From Clostridia bacterium (GTDB lineage Bacteria; Bacillota; Clostridia; Oscillospirales; Acutalibacteraceae), in assembly GCA_017938985.1 (NCBI GenBank), contig JAGBAK010000130.1:9263-73262 (forward strand): a DNA stretch of 64,000 nt, read 5' to 3'. Both the position numbers and the translations under genes were made by a program. Positions within the stretch are counted from its first letter, which is position 1; the number at the start of each line of letters is the position of its first letter. The notes under the pieces were generated by a model. The model had not been told where the DNA came from. It did not search any database and saw only the letters and a list, made by a program, of their open reading frames with translations. Of the stretch, positions 6,309 through 52,925 are shown piece by piece.

Positions 6309-6373
6309 ACATAAAAACACCGCCTGCCGGATTTTTCCCGGCGGGCGGTAAGTTGATTTTTAACGGAGGTTAT

Positions 6374-8227
6374 ATGATGAAAAAGTTTATTTCGATTATT
6401 CTTTCGTTGGCACTTGTTATATCAATAGCCGCTATCGGCGGTGTCAGCGCAACTGAGCCTGTTTCGTCAGAAATTCTTACGGAGTGCGGCGGCAACTGCG
6501 ACGTTTGCCCTGCAATCGTTGTTCCCGGTATCGGTCAGTCAAACGTTTGGCTGCTTGATGATGACGGTGAATACGTGCTTGACGGCGACGGCAACAGAAT
6601 CAATTGCTTCCCCGGCTATTTTGATATCGGCAAAATCGTTTCAAAGGTTCTTCTGCCTGCGATTCTCACGCTGGTAACACAGAAAGATATGGGATTTTCA
6701 AATGCTCTTGCAGAGGCTCTTGCAGGCGCATTCTATATGAACTCATCTGACTTCAACGGCAAGGCTCCCGACTGCGTTGAGGTTGAAAAATATCCTTATT
6801 CCGTTGCGGAATGCAGCGACTATGAAAAGGAACAGATTTACGGCAATATTCCTCTTCAGGATTACGCAAACAGAGTTGGCGAAGACCATCTTTACTATTT
6901 TGCATATAACTCATTCGGCAACAACATTGATATCGTTGACGAGCTTTATGCTTTCATTCAGCAGGTTAAAAAAGAAACCGGTCACGATAAGGTAAACATT
7001 GTTCCCATAAGCATGGGCGGCACGGTTGCAAACGGTCTGCTTGATTATTATCCCGAGGTTGTAAACGACCTCAACAAGGTGGTTTACATTGTTCCCGCTC
7101 TCAACGGTTCAACAATCGTCGGTGACGTTATGACAAAGAACATCACTTTCCTTGATGTTGATTACCTTTATAACGGCTTCCTTGAGGGCCTTATGGACGA
7201 AGAAGACGCAAGAATGATTGAGGTTATTGCAAGAATTCTTCCCGACGAGCTTCTTGTCAAGGCTCTTGATACTGCTGTTGACAAGCTTCTTGCAGACGTT
7301 TTCTCAAAGAACACAAATATGTGGGCACTTCTTCCCAAGGAATATTATGAAGAGGCTTCCGAAGAGCTTCTTTCAGCTCCCGAATATGCAAAAATCAAGG
7401 AGCAGACAGACAGATATCACCTTGCACAGGTAAACTCAAACAAGAATATCCAGAACCTTGTTGATAACGGCGTTCAGGTTTTCAACATTGTTGACTACGA
7501 TTTCCCGCTTTATAACATAGGTGATGCCTGGAACGCAGATAACGCTGACGGCGTAATTCAGCTCAGCTCAACCGCAATGGGCGTTCACTCCGCACTTGTC
7601 GGCGAAACTCTTCCTGCCGACTACGTTCAGCAGAACACCTACTGCGACGACCCCGCACACAACCACATCTCACCCGACAGAGTTGTTGACGCATCAACAG
7701 GCCTTCTGCCTGATACAACCTTCTATTTTGACGGTCAGGCACACGAAAAGACAGCAAGAAACGACGTTATCATCAAGCTTGCAACAGAGCTTCTTGCAAC
7801 CGATAATATCACCGACGTTTATTCAACACCCGATTATCCCCAGTTCAACTATGCGAGAGATGTAAGAGGTCTTAAGAATGACCGTCTGCCCGATGCAAAG
7901 AACGCACTTGCAAACGTTGAAATGAGCGCTGAAGATAAAGCAGAGCTTGAAGCTGCAATTGCTGAAGCTGAAATGGTTCTCAACAGAACCGCAGGCGAAG
8001 AAGGCGATATTGAAGCAAGCGATGCAAGAATCAGAGCAATCCTTGTCAAGATCGGCGTATACGCTCCCGAAGAAGAGGAAAAACCCTCAACCATTTTCAC
8101 AAACATCAGCCTTTTCCTCTATGATAATTTCGGAACAGACGGTTACTCCGAGCTTGCGGCTGCCGCATTCTGCCTTTATCTTGAATTTGTTAAGGAAATC
8201 CTTTCAATCATCGTAAAGGTGCTTTGA
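6374..8227 (+). CDS. Secreted alpha/beta-hydrolase, tandem paralogue of 4422-6308
   Basis: Signal peptide, CGGNCDVCP, IVVPGI, VNIVPISMGG, ADGVI, AHE; shares TGHDKVN, ISPD/VSPD and YPQFNY with its neighbour. RBS GGAGG before the ATG at 6374. Confidence 0.65.
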   Translation: MMKKFISIILSLALVISIAAIGGVSATEPVSSEILTECGGNCDVCPAIVVPGIGQSNVWLLDDDGEYVLDGDGNRINCFPGYFDIGKIVSKVLLPAILTLVTQKDMGFSNALAEALAGAFYMNSSDFNGKAPDCVEVEKYPYSVAECSDYEKEQIYGNIPLQDYANRVGEDHLYYFAYNSFGNNIDIVDELYAFIQQVKKETGHDKVNIVPISMGGTVANGLLDYYPEVVNDLNKVVYIVPALNGSTIVGDVMTKNITFLDVDYLYNGFLEGLMDEEDARMIEVIARILPDELLVKALDTAVDKLLADVFSKNTNMWALLPKEYYEEASEELLSAPEYAKIKEQTDRYHLAQVNSNKNIQNLVDNGVQVFNIVDYDFPLYNIGDAWNADNADGVIQLSSTAMGVHSALVGETLPADYVQQNTYCDDPAHNHISPDRVVDASTGLLPDTTFYFDGQAHEKTARNDVIIKLATELLATDNITDVYSTPDYPQFNYARDVRGLKNDRLPDAKNALANVEMSAEDKAELEAAIAEAEMVLNRTAGEEGDIEASDARIRAILVKIGVYAPEEEEKPSTIFTNISLFLYDNFGTDGYSELAAAAFCLYLEFVKEILSIIVKVL

Positions 8228-13485: not shown

Positions 13486-13530
13486 AAAATCCGCTGATTC
13501 CCGAAAAGGAACCAGCGGTAATTTTTTTAT
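13486..13530. terminator. Bidirectional terminator ending the TRIC gene and the aminotransferase-transketolase operon
   Basis: CCGCTGaTTCC/GGAAcCAGCGG stem flanked by A and T runs. Confidence 0.7.
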
Positions 13531-13536
13531 GTTTTA

Positions 13537-14346
13537 TCAGCCCTGTGCGTAGTCGCCGACCATCATCATATATGCGCCGATCTGTGCGCCGAATTCAGGT
13601 GCGCCGTCCATAATGAGCTGACCGCCCTTTGTGAATTCAAGCATATCTGCAGTACCCATAAGAATACCGAGTGCACTGTCAAGGGAGTCAAAGCGCATTG
13701 TGAAGAAGGGAAGAGCGCGCTTGTAAGTGCCTCTGCCTGCCTTCGATTTGCCTGCCTTGATGCGGATATATGCTGAAATTTCGGGGTAGCCGTTAACTGC
13801 CCATGCATAAACTCTGTCGGGGCTCTTAAGAGTCCAGCCGTGAATTTCTTCGTGACCCTGCTTGTTGAGTGTGCTGATACCGCTTGAAAGCAGATAGAAA
13901 TAGCACTTAACAAGGAGCTTCTTTGTTTCTTCGTCTGCAGGGGGTTCTTTTGCAGTAAGAAGCGATGACATTTTGAGAAGAGTCATCATAAATGCAGCAA
14001 AAACTGCAGGCTTCTTTGCAATACCCTTCATTGCAGGAAGAGTTGCGGGACCGATTTTTCCTTTGAAGAATGCGTTCATTGTTTCAATGCTCTTGAATTC
14101 AAGTTCAATGTGAGCATTTGTTGCAACCTTATCGGTGTGGCAAATCCATTCGCCGCTGTTAACAACAAAATGTGTTGAAAACTTTCCGTTGGGAGCGTCG
14201 GGGTCTTTTGCGCTTACCTGGATAACTGCGTGAGCGTGCTCAAACTTTTTGGCAAGCTTGGGGTCATCCATAGCAATTGTTTTGATAAGGGGAAGAACGG
14301 CACAAAGGAAAATTTTATTGGTTAAAAATTCTTCTCTCGAAGCCAT
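13537..14346 (-). CDS. Hypothetical protein with two predicted SCP2-like (sterol-carrier/lipid-binding) domains
   Basis: Two repeats of a beta-strand-rich unit followed by the pattern (L/M)xFxS-helix-G; the second ends GQLIMDG plus a helix, as in SCP2 folds. RBS GAAAGGA 9 nt before the ATG at 14346. The fold call is by eye. Confidence 0.55.
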   Translation of the reverse strand: MASREEFLTNKIFLCAVLPLIKTIAMDDPKLAKKFEHAHAVIQVSAKDPDAPNGKFSTHFVVNSGEWICHTDKVATNAHIELEFKSIETMNAFFKGKIGPATLPAMKGIAKKPAVFAAFMMTLLKMSSLLTAKEPPADEETKKLLVKCYFYLLSSGISTLNKQGHEEIHGWTLKSPDRVYAWAVNGYPEISAYIRIKAGKSKAGRGTYKRALPFFTMRFDSLDSALGILMGTADMLEFTKGGQLIMDGAPEFGAQIGAYMMMVGDYAQG

Positions 14347-14392
14347 ATAAATCATTCCTTTCGAAAACTAATAATGCGGATTCTGTTATTAA

Positions 14393-14563
14393 TCAGAACG
14401 CTGCAAGGATTTGCTCCAACAAACCTGAAAGTCCTTCAACAGCCTGAGGAATAAGATCCAGATACATTTTTATGAATAGTGAAAGACTTTCAAAATCACC
14501 AATCATAATAAATTCAAATATCTGCAGAATTGTTGCCAAAGTCAGCATCGTTGTAAATCCCAT
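14393..14563 (-). CDS. 56-aa hydrophobic small protein (not in the ORF track)
   Basis: GGAGG RBS then ATG at 14563; MGFTTMLTLATILQIFEFIMIGDFESLSLFIKMYLDLIPQAVEGLSGLLEQILAAF, TGA at 14393-14395. Co-oriented inside the operon. Confidence 0.7.
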   Translation of the reverse strand: MGFTTMLTLATILQIFEFIMIGDFESLSLFIKMYLDLIPQAVEGLSGLLEQILAAF

Positions 14564-14603
14564 AATTTTACCTCCGTTTCAGAAAGAACAAAATCCGATT
14601 TTT

Positions 14604-14690
14604 ATGATTTGAGATTAGTTTCGCTTTCGCAGAGAGGGAAGTGTATTTTTATACACGACCGAACGAGAAAGTAAAAATAGCTCAAATTAT
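14604..14690. repeat. REP-like long hairpin with GAA/GA internal-loop core
   Basis: ATGATTTGAG...CTCAAATTAT outer stem; core GG-GAA-GTGTAT-TTTT-ATACAC-GA-CC. A similar core is at 35306-35338. Confidence 0.5.
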
Positions 14691-15697
14691 GCTTCGTCGT
14701 CCCAGTCGTCGTCAAGCTCGAAGTCCTTACCCATAACCTCGCGAACTGCGTCAATGATGCCGTTCTGGTCAATGCCGAGAGCCGACATAATGTCTTCGTG
14801 CAGACCGATGGGTGCAAACTTGTCGGGGATACCGAGCTGCTTGAATGCGCAGCCCTTACCTGCTTCAACAATAACCTCTGCAACAGCACTGCCGAGACCG
14901 CCGATAACGTTGTGGTCTTCAACCGTGATGATGCGGCGGGTGTCCATAACAGCCTTGATGATGGCTTCCTTGTCGATGGGCTTGATGGTGTGCATATTGA
15001 GAACTCTTACCTTAAGACCGTCGTTTGTTTCAAGGAACTTTGCTGCCTGATATGCCTGGAATACGCAGGAACCGCAAGCGATAACCGTGATGTCGGAACC
15101 TTCATTGATTGTAACAGCCTTACCAACTTCAAAGCCGTAATCGCTGTTCTCATAAAGAACACGGTCAAAGCCTCTGTTGATGCGGATGTAGTAAGGACCG
15201 AAGTTATCATATGCAGCGTGAACTGCGTTGTAAGTTTCAAGACCGTCTGCAGGGCAGATAACTGTCAGGTTGGGGATTGAGCGGCAAACTGCAAGGTCGC
15301 AGATTGCGTGGTGAGTTGAACCTGCCTGACCGAATGACGTACCTGCGTGGGTAGCAATAACCTTTGCATTGATGTTCTGGTAGCAGATGTCTGTATGAAG
15401 CTGGTCAGCACTTCTGAGAGAAGCGAAAACTGAGAAGGTTGAAAGGAAGGGAACAAGGCCTGCCTTTGCCATACCTGCGGCAACGCCGAACATATTCTGT
15501 TCTGCGATACCGACGTTAAAGAATCTGTCGGGGAATTTTTCGCCGAACATACCGATTTTTGTTGATTTACCAAGGTCAGCTGTAAGAGCTACAACCTCGG
15601 GATGCTTTTCGCCGAGCTCGCAGAGAGCCTTACCGTAAATTTCAGCAGTTGAAAAAGCGGTTGATTCTGCAGCTGTGTAGGTTAATCCTCCTGCCAT
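14687..15697 (-). CDS. Split transketolase, C-terminal (pyrimidine-binding) subunit with atypical substrate-site residues
   Basis: TADLGKST, NVGIAEQ, THAG...GQAGSTHH (canonical GEDGPTHQ), YIRINR, TVEDH and GGLGSAVAE. Confidence 0.9.
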   Translation of the reverse strand: MAGGLTYTAAESTAFSTAEIYGKALCELGEKHPEVVALTADLGKSTKIGMFGEKFPDRFFNVGIAEQNMFGVAAGMAKAGLVPFLSTFSVFASLRSADQLHTDICYQNINAKVIATHAGTSFGQAGSTHHAICDLAVCRSIPNLTVICPADGLETYNAVHAAYDNFGPYYIRINRGFDRVLYENSDYGFEVGKAVTINEGSDITVIACGSCVFQAYQAAKFLETNDGLKVRVLNMHTIKPIDKEAIIKAVMDTRRIITVEDHNVIGGLGSAVAEVIVEAGKGCAFKQLGIPDKFAPIGLHEDIMSALGIDQNGIIDAVREVMGKDFELDDDWDDEA

Positions 15698-15699
15698 GA

Positions 15700-16572
15700 T
15701 CAGATGCCCTCCTTTTCTGCGCGAGCTACGCGCTTAGCATAGTGTTTTTCAAGACTTGCTTTTGCAATCTCATATTTTTCTTCGTTGATAGCACCGTAAT
15801 GCCACATGAAGTTGTCTTCCATAAAGTCAACGCCTTCGCCTTTGATGGTGTCAGCGATAATCATAACGGGCTTGCCGCTCTTGTTTTCAAGAGCAAAGTC
15901 AATAGCTTCTGCAAGCTCATTGAAGTTGTGGCCGTTAACAACCTTAACAATGAAGCCGAAAGCTTCCCACTTGTCTGCAAGGGGTTCAAGAGCCATAACG
16001 TCTTCTGTTCTGCCGTCGATCATGCACTTGTTGCGGTCAACGAAAGAGATGAGGTTATCTACCTTGAAGTGAGCGGCTGCCATAGCAGCTTCCCAGTTTG
16101 AACCTTCGTCAAGTTCACCGTCGCCCATGATGCAGAATGTCTTATAATCCTTGCCCAGAACTCTTGCTGCAAGAGCTGTGCCCAGAGCGATGGGAAGTCC
16201 GTGACCGAGCGAACCTGTTGAAGCGTCAACGCCCTTAACCTTGTTGGAGTCAAGGTGGATACCCATTGTTGAGTTGCTCAGGTTGAAGGTCTTGAGCTTT
16301 TCTTTATCGTCAAAACCAACGTGGCAAACAAGGCTTGCAAGAGCAACGCCTGCGTGACCCTTGCTGAGAATGAAGCGGTCTCTGTCTTCCCAGTTGGGGT
16401 CTTCAACCTTGTAGTTCATATACTTGTAGTAGAGAATGGTGAGCATATCCATAACGCTCATGCCGCCGCCGATGTGAGCACTGCCTGCCCAGAACGTGGT
16501 GTCAAGGCAAAGCTTGCGCAGCTCATAAGCCTGTTCTTCAAGAGCTAACCATTCCTGTTTTGTTAATGCCAT
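15700..16572 (-). CDS. Split transketolase, N-terminal (ThDP-binding) subunit
   Basis: SAHIGG, DRFILSKGH, STGSLGHG, GDGELDEG...DRN ThDP motif, TIKG and WH. Confidence 0.92.
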   Translation of the reverse strand: MALTKQEWLALEEQAYELRKLCLDTTFWAGSAHIGGGMSVMDMLTILYYKYMNYKVEDPNWEDRDRFILSKGHAGVALASLVCHVGFDDKEKLKTFNLSNSTMGIHLDSNKVKGVDASTGSLGHGLPIALGTALAARVLGKDYKTFCIMGDGELDEGSNWEAAMAAAHFKVDNLISFVDRNKCMIDGRTEDVMALEPLADKWEAFGFIVKVVNGHNFNELAEAIDFALENKSGKPVMIIADTIKGEGVDFMEDNFMWHYGAINEEKYEIAKASLEKHYAKRVARAEKEGI

Positions 16573-16628
16573 AGGAATATTCCTCCTTTATAATGTTTAT
16601 AATTGAGCGGCAAACACCGCACGTTTAC

Positions 16629-16750
16629 AGTGAAGATTTAAGAGTGAACAGTGAATAGTTTCGGATAGGCTTCGCCTATGACCGATTATATTTTTTGGTG
16701 TGGGCAACGCCCACCCATAACTATTCAATTTTCACTATTCATTATTCACT
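16629..16750. repeat. Intergenic element: inverted arms of 7-bp tandem repeats (AGTGAAN-like) enclosing two hairpins
   Basis: Left arm AGTGAAG ATTTAAG AGTGAAC AGTGAAT AGTT; right arm (reverse complement) AGTGAAT AATGAAT AGTGAAA ATTGAAT AGTT. Inner hairpins ATAGGC-TTC-GCCTAT and GTGGGC-AAC-GCCCAC. Confidence 0.75.
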
Positions 16751-16758
16751 TGAATTGA

Positions 16759-18021
16759 TTAACCGAGTTCGGGGTGGTTTTTGCGGACTGCCTTGAAAGC
16801 ATCTTCAGCAACTTCGATTGTGAACTTGATATCCTCGTCGGAAAGTGATGCGTTGATGAAGTGGTTGTGGTGGTTGGTCATATAAACGCCTCTCTTAACA
16901 ACCTCTGCAATCCATTCCTGATGAAGCATAAGCGAGTTATCGTCTTTAAGCATAAGATAGAAGAGTGCGGGTTCGCCCGAAACGCTAAGGTTGAAGCCGT
17001 TGTTTGCGGCAGCAGCCTTAAGGCCCTCTGTGAGCATTGTACCTTTTTCGAGGCAAAGCTTGGGCAGGTCAATTTCTTTCATCTTGTTGATGCAGGCGAT
17101 AGCTGCAGCAAAGGGAACGGCGCTCATCCAATAGCTGCCTGTGTATGAAAGGCCGCTTATTGCGCTCTTGAGCCAATCCTTACCGCAGAGTGCGGAAACG
17201 TTCCAGCCGTTTGCAAGAGCTTTGCAGAAGCAGATGAGGTCAGCTTCAAAGCCGTAGTGATGGTCTGAGCCTGCAAGGTCAAGTCTGAAACCGCAGCGAA
17301 CGTCGTCAACAATAAGAACGATGCCCTTTTCCGTGCAGAGCTTGCGAACCTTCTGCCAATAGCCTTCTGCGGGAAGAATGTTATCAATAAAGTTGCCGTG
17401 CATATAGGGGGTTGAAATGAAAGCTGCAATTTCGCCTTCGTTTTCGGCAACTATTCTTTCAAGGTCTTCAAAGTTGTTCCATTCAACGTAAAGGTTGTTT
17501 GCAACGTCTTCGGGAATAACGCCGGGGTAGTCAACCTTCTGGCACCAGGGAGCAACACCGTGGTAATAACCCTTAACGAAGATAATCTTCTTTTTGTGGG
17601 TTGCGGCTCTTGCTGTCATAATGGCGGCTGTGGTTGTATCGCCGCCGTTCTTTGCAAAGAATGCCCAGTCAGCCGAAGCGACGGTGTCAACCATAAGCTC
17701 TGCAAACTCAATGATTTTTGTTGAAGGAGCTGTAACGCAGTTTTCAATCTTCATCTGCTCCATAACAGCCTTGTCAACGTCGGGGTCGTTATAGCCGAGA
17801 ACGTTGGGGCCGTAAGCACACATATAGTCTATGTATTTGTTGCCGTCAACATCCCAGAAATATGAGCCCTGAGCTTTCTGGCTGAAAAGGGGGAAAGCCG
17901 AAACGGGAATGCAGCAGCCTTCTGCAGGACCCTGATGTCCGTAAAGACCCGAGGGAATTACTTTTGCGGCTCTTTGAAAGAGCTCGGCGCTTTTTGTGTG
18001 TGTATTAATTTTCATACTCAT
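16759..18021 (-). CDS. Class III PLP aminotransferase, FumI (aminopentol aminotransferase)-like
   Basis: IPSGLYGH, YIDYMCAYGPNVLGY, ADWAFFAKNGGD, YHG, VDDVRCGFR, PLP-Lys FCKALANG and TGSYWMSAVP. Lacks the HemL motifs GGVNSPVR and GTLSGNP. Confidence 0.85.
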   Translation of the reverse strand: MSMKINTHTKSAELFQRAAKVIPSGLYGHQGPAEGCCIPVSAFPLFSQKAQGSYFWDVDGNKYIDYMCAYGPNVLGYNDPDVDKAVMEQMKIENCVTAPSTKIIEFAELMVDTVASADWAFFAKNGGDTTTAAIMTARAATHKKKIIFVKGYYHGVAPWCQKVDYPGVIPEDVANNLYVEWNNFEDLERIVAENEGEIAAFISTPYMHGNFIDNILPAEGYWQKVRKLCTEKGIVLIVDDVRCGFRLDLAGSDHHYGFEADLICFCKALANGWNVSALCGKDWLKSAISGLSYTGSYWMSAVPFAAAIACINKMKEIDLPKLCLEKGTMLTEGLKAAAANNGFNLSVSGEPALFYLMLKDDNSLMLHQEWIAEVVKRGVYMTNHHNHFINASLSDEDIKFTIEVAEDAFKAVRKNHPELG

Positions 18022-18036
18022 GTTCTCTTTACCTCC

Positions 18037-18795
18037 TTATGCAAGATACAGAGCAACTCTGTCAAGAATTCTGTTGAGGTTATCGAGCATTGAAATCATG
18101 CCCTTCATAACGATGTCGCCCGAACCTACGCAGGCAATGGCGTTAACGTTGCCGTCAAAGAGGTCTCTTGCAAGTTCAATGGAACTGAATTCCATAATGG
18201 CTCTGGGATTATCGCTTGCCTTTTTGATGCCGAGAAGGCGGTGGTCTTTAACTCTGATTGTTGTTGAAGCGGCGCCCTTGATGCTGAATGAGATTTCGCC
18301 GTCAACCATGTTGCTTGCGGAGAACTTGCCGATTTCGTCGTTATTGCCTATCTGAGCGATGGCAACCGTGATTGTGTTAAGCAGCAGAAGAGTGCTGATT
18401 CTGAAGAAATCGGGGTCCTTGAGGTCTTCGGGGTCGGGTCTCATATATTTTGAGAGCAGGTCGGTCAGCTTTGTGAAGCTGTTAAGAAGAAAACCGATAT
18501 GGTGGAAGCCCTTTGAGGGGATGGGCGTAACGGTTCCGTCAATAAGACCGTTGAATTTTTCGCAGGAGCTGAAGGGGAGCTTAACGTCGCACTTTGTGCA
18601 GCCCTGCTCCATTCTGCATCTGCCGTTTTTGAAAGTGATGGTGGCGCTGGGGCCGCCCTTAACTTCAAAGCCGATGGAGATAGGCTTTTTGTTTGTCAGC
18701 AGACTGCTTGCCTCGGGAGCAAGCTCGCAGAGGTTTTCGAGGGAACCGAGCACTGCGTAAAGGTTGATATACGCAAGGGTTCTTGAATCAGTCAT
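18037..18795 (-). CDS. Hypothetical protein with two predicted SCP2-like domains
   Basis: Internal duplication (IGFEVKGGPSATITFKNG...LPFSS and ISFSIKGAASTTIRVKDH...MEFSS...GDIVMKG). RBS AAGGAGG. The fold call is by eye. Confidence 0.55.
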   Translation of the reverse strand: MTDSRTLAYINLYAVLGSLENLCELAPEASSLLTNKKPISIGFEVKGGPSATITFKNGRCRMEQGCTKCDVKLPFSSCEKFNGLIDGTVTPIPSKGFHHIGFLLNSFTKLTDLLSKYMRPDPEDLKDPDFFRISTLLLLNTITVAIAQIGNNDEIGKFSASNMVDGEISFSIKGAASTTIRVKDHRLLGIKKASDNPRAIMEFSSIELARDLFDGNVNAIACVGSGDIVMKGMISMLDNLNRILDRVALYLA

Positions 18796-18859
18796 TATAT
18801 TTTCCTCCTTTTATTCTCAGAGCAGGGACAAAACACCTGCTTATAAATATAATCAATTT

Positions 18860-18888
18860 ATTTTAACAGATATATTGTTCATTGTCAA
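18860..18888 (-). promoter_or_regulatory. Sigma-A promoter of the SCP2-aminotransferase-transketolase operon
   Basis: TTGACA, 17 bp, TAAAAT with an extended TGn -10 on the minus strand. Confidence 0.75.
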
Positions 18889-19086
18889 CAAATCAGAGGG
18901 TGAAAAATGTGATTTTATGGTGAAAATTTAAATTCTTAAACCCCAAAGTGTGCCTGAACACGGTTTTTTTGTTTCACACAGGTTGCAACTCTTTTAATAA
19001 ATTGAAAATTTGAAGCAAAAGGATTGACTTTTGTTTAAAAATGTGTCCTAATATTATATAGATATTTGAATATTGGAGGTATATAT

Positions 19087-19623
19087 ATGAAAAAAGTTTT
19101 AGCCGTTCTTTGCGTTTTTGCAACACTTTTTGCTCTTGCAGCCTGCAAAAACAAAGAAAAAGAGCTTACAGAAGAAGAAAGACTTGCGAGCTTACATGCT
19201 TCGCAGGAGCAGAACAGAATTGAAATGTCACAGCAGGTTGAGAATTCGATAAAGCAGGAAATTGAAATTCAGTCGGATAAGAAAAATACTCTTGAAAATC
19301 TGGGTAAAACAGAAAAAGATAAGCGGATTGTCTTTTTGAGCGACGGTGAGTATCCCGGAATGAAAGAGGGATATCAGATTATCAAGTTTGACGGTTCCGG
19401 CAAGTTTGAAAGCTGGCTTCAGTATATTTACTATCCCACAACAGAAGCTTTTGACAGGGCGCTTGCATACATCAATGACGAGGGCAATTTTGCTTACGAA
19501 ACCTCTGATGCGTCAATGAGAGTTATTGTTTACAGATACACAAACGAAAAGTATCTTGCAAACGAGAAATATGACGATATGCTCCAGAGAGTAAGAGATT
19601 TCGGCTACACCGTTGTAGAATAA
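19087..19623 (+). CDS. Uncharacterised lipoprotein
   Basis: MKKVLAV signal with lipobox LAAC. RBS GGAGG. Confidence 0.75.
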   Translation: MKKVLAVLCVFATLFALAACKNKEKELTEEERLASLHASQEQNRIEMSQQVENSIKQEIEIQSDKKNTLENLGKTEKDKRIVFLSDGEYPGMKEGYQIIKFDGSGKFESWLQYIYYPTTEAFDRALAYINDEGNFAYETSDASMRVIVYRYTNEKYLANEKYDDMLQRVRDFGYTVVE

Positions 19624-19638
19624 TCGGGAGATTGAAAA

Positions 19639-20106
19639 ATGAAAAAAGTTTTAGCGATAATGCTTGTTTTTGCGTCGCTCTTTGCGTTTGCGGCGTGCAC
19701 AGGCAAAGAAAACACTGCAGAAACAACCGCATCAACCGTTGCACTCACAATACAAACAACAGCCGGAACGGATGAAACAACAAAAATCAGTGCGGTAGCA
19801 GGTAAAACAATTCTGCTCAAAAGCCTTGCAAGTGAAGATTACGTTGAGATTCATACAAACGTCGACGGTATAGCAACCGTTATGCTTGTGCATAAATTCT
19901 ACGCAGACGAAGCATCATATCAGGCAGCACTTGATAAGGGCGACTACGGTACTTATAAGCTTGAAAAAGCGATTGAACCCGAAAATGAAAACGAAAAACA
20001 TCAGATCGTTTTCAGGGATACGGAAACAATCAGCGGTATGACCTATGACGAGATTATGTCAGAAGCAAACGGCAATAAGGATTATGTGGTTGTTGGAAAA
20101 CAATAA
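19639..20106 (+). CDS. Uncharacterised lipoprotein, paralogue of the upstream gene
   Basis: MKKVLAI signal with lipobox FAAC, Thr-rich linker, and a shared C-terminal pattern. Confidence 0.75.
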   Translation: MKKVLAIMLVFASLFAFAACTGKENTAETTASTVALTIQTTAGTDETTKISAVAGKTILLKSLASEDYVEIHTNVDGIATVMLVHKFYADEASYQAALDKGDYGTYKLEKAIEPENENEKHQIVFRDTETISGMTYDEIMSEANGNKDYVVVGKQ

Positions 20107-51492: not shown

Positions 51493-51650
51493 ACGTTAAC
51501 CTCCGCTGAATGATATTAATTACAGCAATATATATTCTACAACTAATCAAAGCCGTTGTCAAACGGTTGAAAAAAATTAATAATTACGTAAAAATACTGC
51601 TGACAGTTTTTATATGCCGATGAATCGGCAAAAGAAAGGAGATGTTTGTT

Positions 51651-52925
51651 TTGAAAGCAAACGAAAGCGTACAAAACTATCCTTCCGAAAGAAGAATGTA
51701 TGCGAACTACACAGCAAGAAGCATCAAAAAGGTGTGCAAGGAAATCGGACCCCGATTTGCCGGCTCCGAGCAGGAAAAGAAAGCCGTTGAATATATGGCG
51801 GAAGATCTTAAGACCTGCTGCGACGAGGTTGGCATGGATGAATACACCGTCAGCCCTATGGCTTTCCTCGGTTGGATTCCGCTCTCGGTTATCCTTATGA
51901 CAATTTCATCGCTGCTTTTCTTTGCGGTTGCATTTTTCGGACTTGCTTATCAGCTTCTTTTTGTTTCGGTTGCTCTTGTTGCAGTCTGCCTTTTCTTCAT
52001 AATAACAGAGTTTCTTTTCTATAAAGAAACACTTGACCCGTTTATGAAGAAAAAAACTTCTTATAACGCCTACGGCTACAGAAAAGCTTCGGGCGAAACC
52101 AAACGACGCATCATTTTCTGCGGTCACGCCGACTCGTCAATGGAATGGCGTTTCACATATTACGGCGGACCCAAGCTGGTTATTCCCGTAATCGGCGGCA
52201 GCTTTGTGGGCATTCTGGTTACTCTTGTTTGTGACATCATTGTTATTGCAAAGTGCTTTGCAGATCCCGCATTTATTGAAACAAAGGCTGTTGACGTTAT
52301 CAGCTACGTTCTTCTCGGCTTTGTTGTAATTTTCCTTTGCGCTTCGCTTTTCTATGACAAAAAGCGCATTGTTGAAGGTGCAAACGATAACCTTACCGGC
52401 TGCTTTGCATCAATTGCAATGCTTAAATATCTCAAGGACCATGATATCCGCTTTGAAAACACAGAGGTATGGGCACTTTGCGCCGGCTCCGAAGAAATCG
52501 GTCTCCGAGGTTCAAAGGCTTTCTGTGAAAAGCACGGCAAAGAGCTTGCTGACGTTGAAACCGTTTTTATCGCTCTCGATACAATCCGTGACTTTGATTT
52601 TATGGCAGTCTATAATAAGGATATGACATTCACGGTAAACAATGATGCCGAGGTATGCAACCTTATCAAAGCAGGCGGTAAAATTGCAGGCTATGACCTT
52701 CCTTTCAAGCCTGTATCTCTTGGTGCTACAGATGCTGCTGCAGTCACAAAGAGCAAGTGCGGAATGAAGGCTGCAGCCTTTGCTGCTATGGACCCTGCTC
52801 CCGCACGTTATTACCACACAAGACTTGATACTCACGAAAACCTTGACCTCAAAACAATTGAAGCAGGCGTGGATATCTGCCTTGAAACAATGTTCCTCTA
52901 TGACGAAAAAGGTCTTAACGTTTGA
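51651..52925 (+). CDS. Membrane-inserted M28 family peptidase
   Basis: IGPRFAGS, GHADS, GANDN, GSEEIGLRGS and YYHTRLD with TM insertions. TTG start fits the RBS spacing better than the ATG at 51642. Confidence 0.8.
   Translation: MKANESVQNYPSERRMYANYTARSIKKVCKEIGPRFAGSEQEKKAVEYMAEDLKTCCDEVGMDEYTVSPMAFLGWIPLSVILMTISSLLFFAVAFFGLAYQLLFVSVALVAVCLFFIITEFLFYKETLDPFMKKKTSYNAYGYRKASGETKRRIIFCGHADSSMEWRFTYYGGPKLVIPVIGGSFVGILVTLVCDIIVIAKCFADPAFIETKAVDVISYVLLGFVVIFLCASLFYDKKRIVEGANDNLTGCFASIAMLKYLKDHDIRFENTEVWALCAGSEEIGLRGSKAFCEKHGKELADVETVFIALDTIRDFDFMAVYNKDMTFTVNNDAEVCNLIKAGGKIAGYDLPFKPVSLGATDAAAVTKSKCGMKAAAFAAMDPAPARYYHTRLDTHENLDLKTIEAGVDICLETMFLYDEKGLNV

Follow-up and report, generated by a model that had tools for sequence, protein, structure and literature searches.

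An operon joining a FumI-related aminotransferase, an altered split transketolase and two SCP2-like proteins, and its possible role in sphingoid-base catabolism by anaerobic Bacillota

The DNA analysed here (the window) is a 64,000-nucleotide stretch of contig JAGBAK010000130.1 (positions 9,263 to 73,262) from the Acutalibacteraceae assembly GCA_017938985.1, a genome that is 81% complete. Its minus strand carries six open reading frames (ORFs) between 13537 and 18795, for which an initial annotation, made from the letters alone, had proposed a new pathway: an aminotransferase, an altered transketolase (TK) and SCP2 carriers acting on sphingoid bases (2-amino-1,3-diols). The six genes all lie at the place which that annotation gave. 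The features are, in the direction of reading:

18860..18888, minus strand: sigma-A-type promoter, TTGACA-17-TAAAAT with extended TG, scoring 11 of 12
18037..18795, minus strand: SCP2a, tandem SCP2-like protein of 252 amino acids (aa), assigned by profiles
16759..18021, minus strand: class III pyridoxal phosphate (PLP) aminotransferase, FumI-related, 420 aa (Pfam and PDB match)
15700..16572, minus strand: TK-N, the thiamine diphosphate (ThDP) chain that binds the diphosphate, 290 aa (Transketolase_N)
14687..15697, minus strand: TK-C, pyrimidine and C-terminal chain, 336 aa (Transket_pyr and Transketolase_C)
14690..14713, minus strand: C-terminal TK-C tail (residues 329-336), acidic and with a Trp, its conservation confined to operon TKs; predicted to be the peptide on which SCP2b docks
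14393..14563, minus strand: hydrophobic ORF of 56 aa, accessory, no family found
13537..14355, minus strand: SCP2b, tandem SCP2-like protein of 272 aa (profiles and predicted fold)
13491..13518, minus strand: intrinsic terminator-like hairpin, 12 pairs followed by a T run

Taken by themselves, the signals are within chance expectation: there are 18 promoter-like sites in the region (11.9 in shuffled sequences), the one at 18888-18860 being the top scorer, and 13 terminator-like hairpins (10.3 in shuffles). The operon itself is confirmed in this position, its gene grouping being far beyond chance. Contigs from RNA libraries of three studies span all five large genes with 85–99% likeness, falling to near zero outside 13494-18731; they come from relatives, with small word shares, and demonstrate neither transcription nor a single transcript. 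Contigs of relatives jump over 14362-14606, where the 56-aa ORF sits. This ORF does exist, as annotated, but it occurs in only 5 of 80 related GTDB loci, which rules it out as a core part of the operon. It has a strong ribosome site and a promoter-like site upstream (14715-14686), and one relative carries two tandem copies (L015:11551-11962). The gap between the aminotransferase and TK genes (window 16573-16758) contains imperfect inverted repeats and small hairpins and is of highly variable length among relatives; it is perhaps a small inserted element. None of the operon proteins reaches an NCBIfam cut-off.

Lack of co-conservation had been named beforehand as grounds for abandoning the proposal; the five large genes are in fact kept together across classes of Bacillota and beyond. 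In a GTDB scan with the aminotransferase, where the best 80 of 472 stretches encoding relatives were analysed, all five genes occur in the same order in 63 loci, and the remaining 17 are cut by contig ends, which fall either where the aminotransferase starts or no more than 2.1 kb beyond it on the downstream side. The flanks vary among these 80 loci, and no conserved transporter, regulator or hydrolase was found beside the operon in them. SCP2b is present in 4 of 400 sampled genomes of the phylum: two have intact rows, one has the genes rearranged into TK-N/TK-C/SCP2b plus SCP2a/aminotransferase, and one is split likewise across two contigs. In a second order, belonging to another class (that of genome G294), 19/115 genomes have a close aminotransferase (four of them counted without sight of the flanks); 13 of the 14 loci whose flanks were read contain all five genes, and the other is cut. 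Among 80 distant metagenome loci, 15 have all five genes, 11 a partial row with an operon-type TK, 23 only SCP2a and the aminotransferase, and 31 neither. The order is retained at 43–50% identity. Where operons are split, SCP2a remains with the aminotransferase and SCP2b with the TK, and SCP2b was never seen without the operon TK; there are two conserved sub-pairs, SCP2a-aminotransferase and SCP2b-TK. This is a real and widespread pathway module of gut and environmental anaerobes, whose genes stay associated even where the row has been rearranged. Genes resembling NAD(P) transhydrogenase adjoin operon parts, in divergent orientation, in four loci of two different lineages (L091, L131, L132 and L271).

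The TK belongs to the split-type transketolase superfamily, as judged from the ThDP motif GDG-X-N, the catalytic Glu, His26/His261, His100 and His473 (Escherichia coli TK numbering, mapped through 6YAJ and human TK), and its closest structural match is the split TK of Carboxydothermus. TK-N keeps His33, His73, His106 and His258 (E. coli H26, H66, H100 and H261) and TK-C keeps Ser45, His117, His129 and Arg175; the full set retained in E. coli numbering is His26, His66, His100, His261, Glu411, Ser385, His461, His473 and Arg520. Three TK-C positions are substituted: Ala125 stands for Asp469, Ala18 for Arg358 and His130 for Gln474. These changes were counted among 131 distinct operon-type TK-C sequences, the number of covered rows varying by position. 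Of the 128 sequences that cover position 469, 126 have Ala there, one has Gly, one has Ser and none has Asp; Gln474 is replaced by His in 126/126. At the phosphate site, Ser385 (129/130), His461 (128/128) and Arg520 (125/125) are kept, and Arg358 survives in 2/91 and in a few more divergent copies. A Tyr immediately after His258 (E. coli His261) in TK-N is specific to the clade. Asp469, the residue of canonical EC 2.2.1.1 enzymes that binds the 2-OH of the acceptor, is therefore missing. Identity as a 1-deoxy-D-xylulose 5-phosphate (DXP) synthase was rejected: His106 is kept, with no change of His100 to Phe, and the score is 221 bits against a cut-off of 466.

Asp469 binds the hydroxyl groups of sugars and decides which stereoisomer is used (PMC11387542). 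In E. coli TK, D469A makes the enzyme more active with propanal alone, D469S and D469T remain S-selective, and D469Y and H26Y reverse this selectivity (PMC3657141). His100 distinguishes hydroxymethyl donors from pyruvate and is replaced by Phe in DXP synthase (PMC7661550). The operon enzyme is thus altered, as had been proposed, exactly where the E. coli variants for aliphatic aldehydes are, and its residue pattern fits a substrate HOCH2-CO-CHOH-R in which R lacks a neighbouring hydroxyl. That this is nevertheless an ordinary pentose-phosphate TK in a chance or housekeeping gene row is hardly credible, the match to the Carboxydothermus enzyme notwithstanding: the genome has a second split TK, 42–45% identical, which retains Arg358 and the GEDG motif, the operon copies lack Asp469 throughout, and the conserved order described above contradicts it as well.

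The aminotransferase is a class III PLP enzyme, both by profile score (Aminotran_3, PF00202; E 9e-44, 150 bits against a cut-off of 30.5) and by Lys267, which aligns with the PLP lysine of FumI and is invariant in 8/8 rows. FumI (6HBS) is its closest PDB match (E 1.9e-88, 300 bits; the next match has 156 bits) and its only characterised close structure. Glutamate-1-semialdehyde aminomutase (HemL) was rejected as an identity, the scores lying below the curated cut-offs (205 bits versus 527 for TIGR00713 and 230 versus 398 for NF000818). FumI transfers the C2 amine of hydrolysed fumonisin B1 (HFB1) to pyruvate, yielding a 2-keto compound; the accessible text of that study reports no test of sphinganine (PMC3136697). 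In a FastTree phylogeny of 123 rows (last 430 residues of each; FumI itself is not among them) the SCP2-linked aminotransferases form one group (support 88), apart from a proteobacterial FumI-like clade (support 100). Because the operon enzymes group apart from these proteins, the link to sphingoid substrates is drawn from family membership rather than from orthology. Among eight plasmid loci, the proteobacterial relatives adjoin a sugar kinase and a class II aldolase in 3/8 and dimethylformamidase-like genes in 3/8, and 3/8 show neither type of neighbour; neither a split TK nor an SCP2 pair was seen beside them, and SCP2b had no match in plasmid sequences.

The first and last genes had been called SCP2-like, a call that is weak or absent in Pfam (SCP2a matches SCP2 with E 4e-4, below the cut-off; SCP2b has no Pfam SCP2 match, and its profile none among PDB sequences) and is borne out by profiles and a predicted fold, in which each protein consists of two SCP2 domains. 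The SCP2b model, from a 56-row alignment, has a pLDDT of 93.8, and its Foldseek matches are SCP2 proteins and SCP2-bearing alkylsulfatases; against SCP2 structures, residues 146-269 give Z 10.9 (rmsd 3.0, 113 aligned) and residues 14-130 give Z 8.8 (rmsd 4.3, 116 aligned). SCP2a is a paralogue of SCP2b over 254 columns (profile comparison, probability 99.9), and 41/56 members of its family match Pfam SCP2; its assignment comes from profiles, the single-sequence model having a pLDDT of only 32.8. The fold suggests that both proteins bind lipids, and SCP2a is predicted to act as a carrier or activator for the aminotransferase.

A physical connection between the TK and its SCP2 partner is also predicted. 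The C-terminus of operon TK-C is an acidic tail that contains a conserved Trp and is absent from the other aligned TKs, and SCP2b carries a conserved basic strand (residues 203-208). Prediction of the TK-C and SCP2b complex scored 0.73 (best of three controls, 0.00), the runs agreeing in at least 62% of contacts with partner pLDDT of at least 89, and placed TK-C 329-336 on SCP2b 203-208 and its neighbours. The mark applied to such scores is reached by 116/157 solved and 2/215 mismatched pairs, counts that are only a rough guide to a run with its own alignment. Modelling thus supports docking of the tail on SCP2b as a prediction.

With confidence slightly above even, we interpret the operon as a system for sphingoid-base catabolism by transamination and subsequent ThDP-dependent cleavage, with a proposed substrate, direction and stereochemistry. 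It would break down bases of the sphinganine or sphingosine type, which are long-chain 2-amino-1,3-diols, in three steps that need no oxygen: (i) by analogy with FumI, SCP2a would present the base and the aminotransferase would pass the amine on C2 to a keto acid, pyruvate for example, leaving a 1,3-dihydroxy-2-ketone; (ii) as the active-site residues suggest, the TK, with SCP2b held on its acidic tail, would cut the C2–C3 bond on ThDP, releasing a fatty aldehyde such as hexadecanal; and (iii), least certainly, the glycolaldehyde unit would pass to an aldose phosphate or be freed, and the fatty aldehyde would be oxidised or reduced and may serve as a source of acyl chains in fatty-acid auxotrophs. 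The initial annotation had passed the C2 unit to pentose phosphates, a claim that the loss of Asp469 and, mostly, of Arg358 leaves doubtful.

The remainder of the genome bears on this interpretation through a second set of genes. Co-occurrence was counted in a family sample of Acutalibacteraceae (120 genera, one genome each, at least 90% complete), in which 24 genomes carry the operon TK; these carriers are kin and not independent, so such counts overstate and Fisher values are descriptive only. A tandem class II aldolase and an FGGY kinase are each found in 22/24 carriers and 2/96 non-carriers; the other members of their module are a TetR regulator and a further aminotransferase of class III. 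It had been remarked that there is no sugar kinase, which holds within the operon; the kinase–aldolase–aminotransferase module is, however, co-inherited elsewhere in the genome, here without TetR on two other contigs (G000:C36:71493-74221 and C1:3933-5531, loci L283 and L284), and in several relatives all or part of it adjoins the operon (L272, L293, L297, L299 and L056-L058). The second-module aminotransferase occurs in 6/400 phylum genomes, three of them carriers, and in 5/5 carriers tested in the second order; it is absent from two carriers. All three enzymes of the module score below the curated cut-offs of named enzymes. Rows homologous to it lie near aldehyde dehydrogenases on plasmids of Butyrivibrio fibrisolvens and Burkholderia ambifaria.

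This module may process 4-hydroxy bases, yielding dihydroxyacetone phosphate (DHAP) and pentadecanal from phytosphingosine, or it may take in the C2 unit; alternatively it may assimilate glycolaldehyde or ethanolamine. By Cahn–Ingold–Prelog (CIP) reasoning, 2-keto-phytosphingosine would have the 3R,4R form that FucA-type aldolases cleave. Since that form would suit such an aldolase and a TK without Asp469 would suit 4-deoxy bases, the two modules could divide the common sphingoid bases between them. The co-inherited sugar-type kinase and aldolase can also be read differently, as signs of a small polar substrate (an amino polyol or an amino sugar alcohol) and of SCP2 proteins that are structural, without lipid cargo. 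Proteobacterial relatives adjoining peptide-type ABC transporters and amidases, and SCP2 folds that exist as non-carrier domains (among the lower-ranked structural matches), point the same way. We consider this quite improbable: the loss of Asp469 speaks against a polyhydroxy chain, two tandem SCP2 proteins are retained for two different enzymes, and the absence of FabF together with the enrichment of ceramidases, both described below, indicate lipids.

Co-occurrence with ceramidase, an expectation of the proposal, was found, though not in every carrier. Ceramidase-family matches are present in 14/24 carriers and 5/96 other genomes of the family, and in 8/19 carriers and 4/96 others in the second order. 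In three samples, 7/8 genomes with a match at E ≤1e-25, a threshold picked after the matches had been seen, are carriers; four weaker matches in the phylum sample fall in non-carriers. The protein of G294 aligns with solved neutral ceramidases, to which it is closely related. In the present genome, one contig (L285:3155-6881, G000:C69) encodes a distantly related member of the ceramidase family and, after it, a lipoprotein resembling alkylsulfatases whose C-terminal domain is of the SCP2 type. The concentration of strong ceramidases in carriers counts against another possibility, that the chemistry and direction are as proposed and the substrate is a lipophilic amine or amino alcohol of another kind, for instance the head of a bacterial aminolipid, an amino diol with an alkyl or aryl group, or a metabolite of plants or fungi. 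In favour of this, SCP2 folds accept many different lipids, the aminotransferases form a clade separate from the FumI-like one, many carriers have no ceramidase, and the operon has no conserved transporter or hydrolase next to it. The residues His100 and His26/His261 nevertheless demand a hydroxymethyl ketol, which points to a 2-amino-1,3-diol before transamination, a class whose abundant long-chain members are the sphingoid bases. A lipophilic substrate of another kind seems to us unlikely, if the least so of the alternatives.

FabF was found in none of the 24 family carriers nor in this genome, and in 15 of 25 tested non-carriers (of the 96); FabZ was found in 0/5 carriers tested. Regulation was traced through a palindrome in second-module promoters (trained on 19 regions), which scores at least 12 before SCP2a in 7/117 loci, one of them sharing a training region; shuffles give 0–1. 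In this window no such TetR operator precedes SCP2a (top score −6.7), and no matching TetR was found in the genome. An aldehyde dehydrogenase, another expected companion, does follow the operon in two loci (L177 and L224) but has no match in this genome, and an alanine-dehydrogenase-like gene flanks the operon in one (L203). Catabolism is favoured because of the TetR control in other lineages, the aldehyde dehydrogenases after the operon and the missing FabF.

Synthesis is the opposite direction: the TK would attach a C2 unit taken from a ketose phosphate onto a fatty aldehyde, and amination by the aminotransferase would yield a membrane lipid of sphingoid-like or aminodiol type, with no need for serine palmitoyltransferase (SPT). 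Both reactions are reversible, three of the four phosphate-binding residues are kept, the usual 3S product would be permitted, and a biosynthetic precedent exists in AniQ/AniP (below). Further points for synthesis are that this genome looks constitutive (a near-consensus promoter, no operator, no matching TetR) and that TK-less SCP2a-aminotransferase pairs adjoin biosynthetic-looking genes. For SPT, whose co-occurrence the initial annotation had suggested checking, this genome gives no match, which also counts for a synthetic role. The TK-less pair lies behind a polyketide synthase (PKS) module and an alpha-oxoamine synthase in one locus (L172:1-5394), and downstream of a diglucosyl-diacylglycerol-synthase-like (glycolipid-synthase-like) gene in four (L173, L192, L209 and L228); these rows are possibly a separate aminolipid biosynthetic system. 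Other lineages, on the other hand, have a TetR with an operator common to the operon and the kinase–aldolase module, aldehyde dehydrogenases lie downstream, the absence of FabF fits scavenging, and the five genes have no acyltransferase, reductase or glycosyltransferase as a conserved companion. We regard the synthetic direction as improbable, slightly more so than a different lipophilic amine.

Several observations weigh against sphingoid-base catabolism. As the initial annotation had cautioned, D-erythro bases give the 3R ketol and canonical TK uses 3S, a caveat that is right by the CIP rules. The TK residues do not explain use of the 3R ketol, since small substitutions of Asp469 stay S-selective in the E. 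coli enzyme and His26 is kept; the Tyr after His261 is a candidate determinant of a 3R preference. Nor is the loss of Asp469 specific, other specialised split TKs having Asn there (L089 and L207). The aminotransferase is about 40% identical to FumI-type proteins and in a separate clade, so its substrate is not fixed by descent. A ceramidase match is missing in 10/24 family carriers and 3/4 phylum-sample carriers, and this genome, at its stated completeness, has only two distant ceramidase-family proteins. None of 10 regions upstream of ceramidase-family genes reaches an operator score of 12 (best 10.5), and the idea that these genes share the operator of the operon was dropped as not reproduced. 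FabF is present in 3/5 carriers of the second order, a match to the operon-linked aldehyde dehydrogenase in 1/5 carriers, and the TK-less pairs make up 23/80 metagenome loci, some in biosynthetic-looking rows. Finally, the route would be independent of sphingosine-1-phosphate (S1P) lyase, as had been claimed, but this genome has an S1P-lyase-like gene (390 bits). It follows a gene resembling GH3-family acyl-amido synthetases and one for a DUF819 membrane protein (L330:1728-6166, G000:C137). Because no such gene was found in three other carriers, a recent gain or a binning error is possible.

Three more observations concern neighbouring genes. A lipase-like alpha/beta hydrolase with a signal-like N-terminus (window 6353-8227), which has at least eight paralogous matches in this genome, fits lipid scavenging. 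An M28/M20-family peptidase-like gene, a candidate N-deacylase, follows the operon in two genera (L272:11223-12461 and L277:11145-12404) and has two homologues here, one at window ~51640-52925. Two small lipoprotein-like genes of a multi-copy family in this genome lie divergent from the operon promoter (window 19066-20106).

Each part of the system has known counterparts. FumI, from the fum cluster of Sphingopyxis sp. MTA144 (PMC3136697), is likewise a class III PLP enzyme and the closest structural relative; it takes the amine off C2 of a chain resembling sphinganine, preferring pyruvate as acceptor, to give a 2-keto-3-ol. It differs in that FumI-like proteins form another clade, HFB1 has a C1 methyl in place of CH2OH, and neither a split TK nor an SCP2 pair was seen in the eight plasmid loci read. 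The split TK of Carboxydothermus hydrogenoformans (6YAK/6YAJ; PMC7661550) and canonical TK share with the operon enzyme the ThDP motif, His26/66/100/261/473, Glu411, Ser385, His461 and Arg520, and the split enzyme also its two chains; the operon TK departs from both in Asp469 to Ala, the usual loss of Arg358, Gln474 to His, the Tyr after His261 and the acidic tail predicted to bind SCP2b. AniQ/AniP of anisomycin biosynthesis (PMC11387542) are a natural aminotransferase plus TK-like ThDP enzyme acting on non-phosphorylated substrates; theirs is a biosynthetic pathway, in which the single-chain AniP decarboxylates aromatic keto acids and lacks the histidine-rich motif kept in the operon TK, with no SCP2 carriers. 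Engineered E. coli TK D469 variants (PMC3657141, PMC10787763), one of whose changes, D469A, the operon TK has naturally, serve laboratory synthesis from hydroxypyruvate and short aldehydes, whereas the operon TK is natural, probably catabolic and in a long-chain setting.

Compared with the S1P lyase route, the proposed one would break the same C2–C3 bond and release the same fatty aldehyde, but without phosphorylation at C1, on ThDP instead of by PLP retro-aldol cleavage and with the nitrogen removed first. Pseudomonas SphBCD, of which SphBC is a periplasmic oxidase–cytochrome pair whose product is reported as unidentified (PMC11398299), is unlike the operon. The second module resembles FucK/FucA-type catabolism of fucose and arabinose in its FGGY kinase and class II aldolase, with a class III aminotransferase in place of the isomerase. 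The cysteinolate pathway (PMC12814064) was rejected as a match, its chemistry being different, and a report of phytosphingosine from Flavonifractor plautii (PMC11914097) names no enzyme in its accessible text and is not used as support. No description of this operon or route was found in the literature covered, most subscription journals lying outside it; the statement that no comparable natural pathway is known holds to that extent, the anisomycin pair being natural but of other chemistry. None of the known systems compared shares this architecture. The pathway, with its putative substrate, and its architecture would be new; every part comes from a known enzyme or fold family.

We tentatively extend this to a two-branch, oxygen-free and S1P-lyase-free system for the sphingolipid backbone in anaerobic Bacillota, with a carrier-docked TK for 4-deoxy bases, an aminotransferase–kinase–aldolase branch for phytosphingosine and one TetR operator family, through which gut Acutalibacteraceae unable to make fatty acids would obtain acyl chains for their membranes from sphingolipids of the diet and the host, the TK being naturally 3R-selective for long-chain aldehydes; as a whole we consider this doubtful, well below the catabolic interpretation of the operon itself. 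Because sphingoid bases inhibit bacteria (PMC11398299), their removal would be useful in its own right. The five-gene operon is present in 24 of the 120 sampled genera of a common gut family. If sphingoid-base catabolism is its function, four or five soluble proteins would constitute a pathway that sets what amount of sphingolipid from diet and host persists in the gut, the enzyme would be a natural lipid transketolase with a carrier bound through a short tail, and the whole would be a natural form of the TK–transaminase cascades that chemists have engineered for amino diols.

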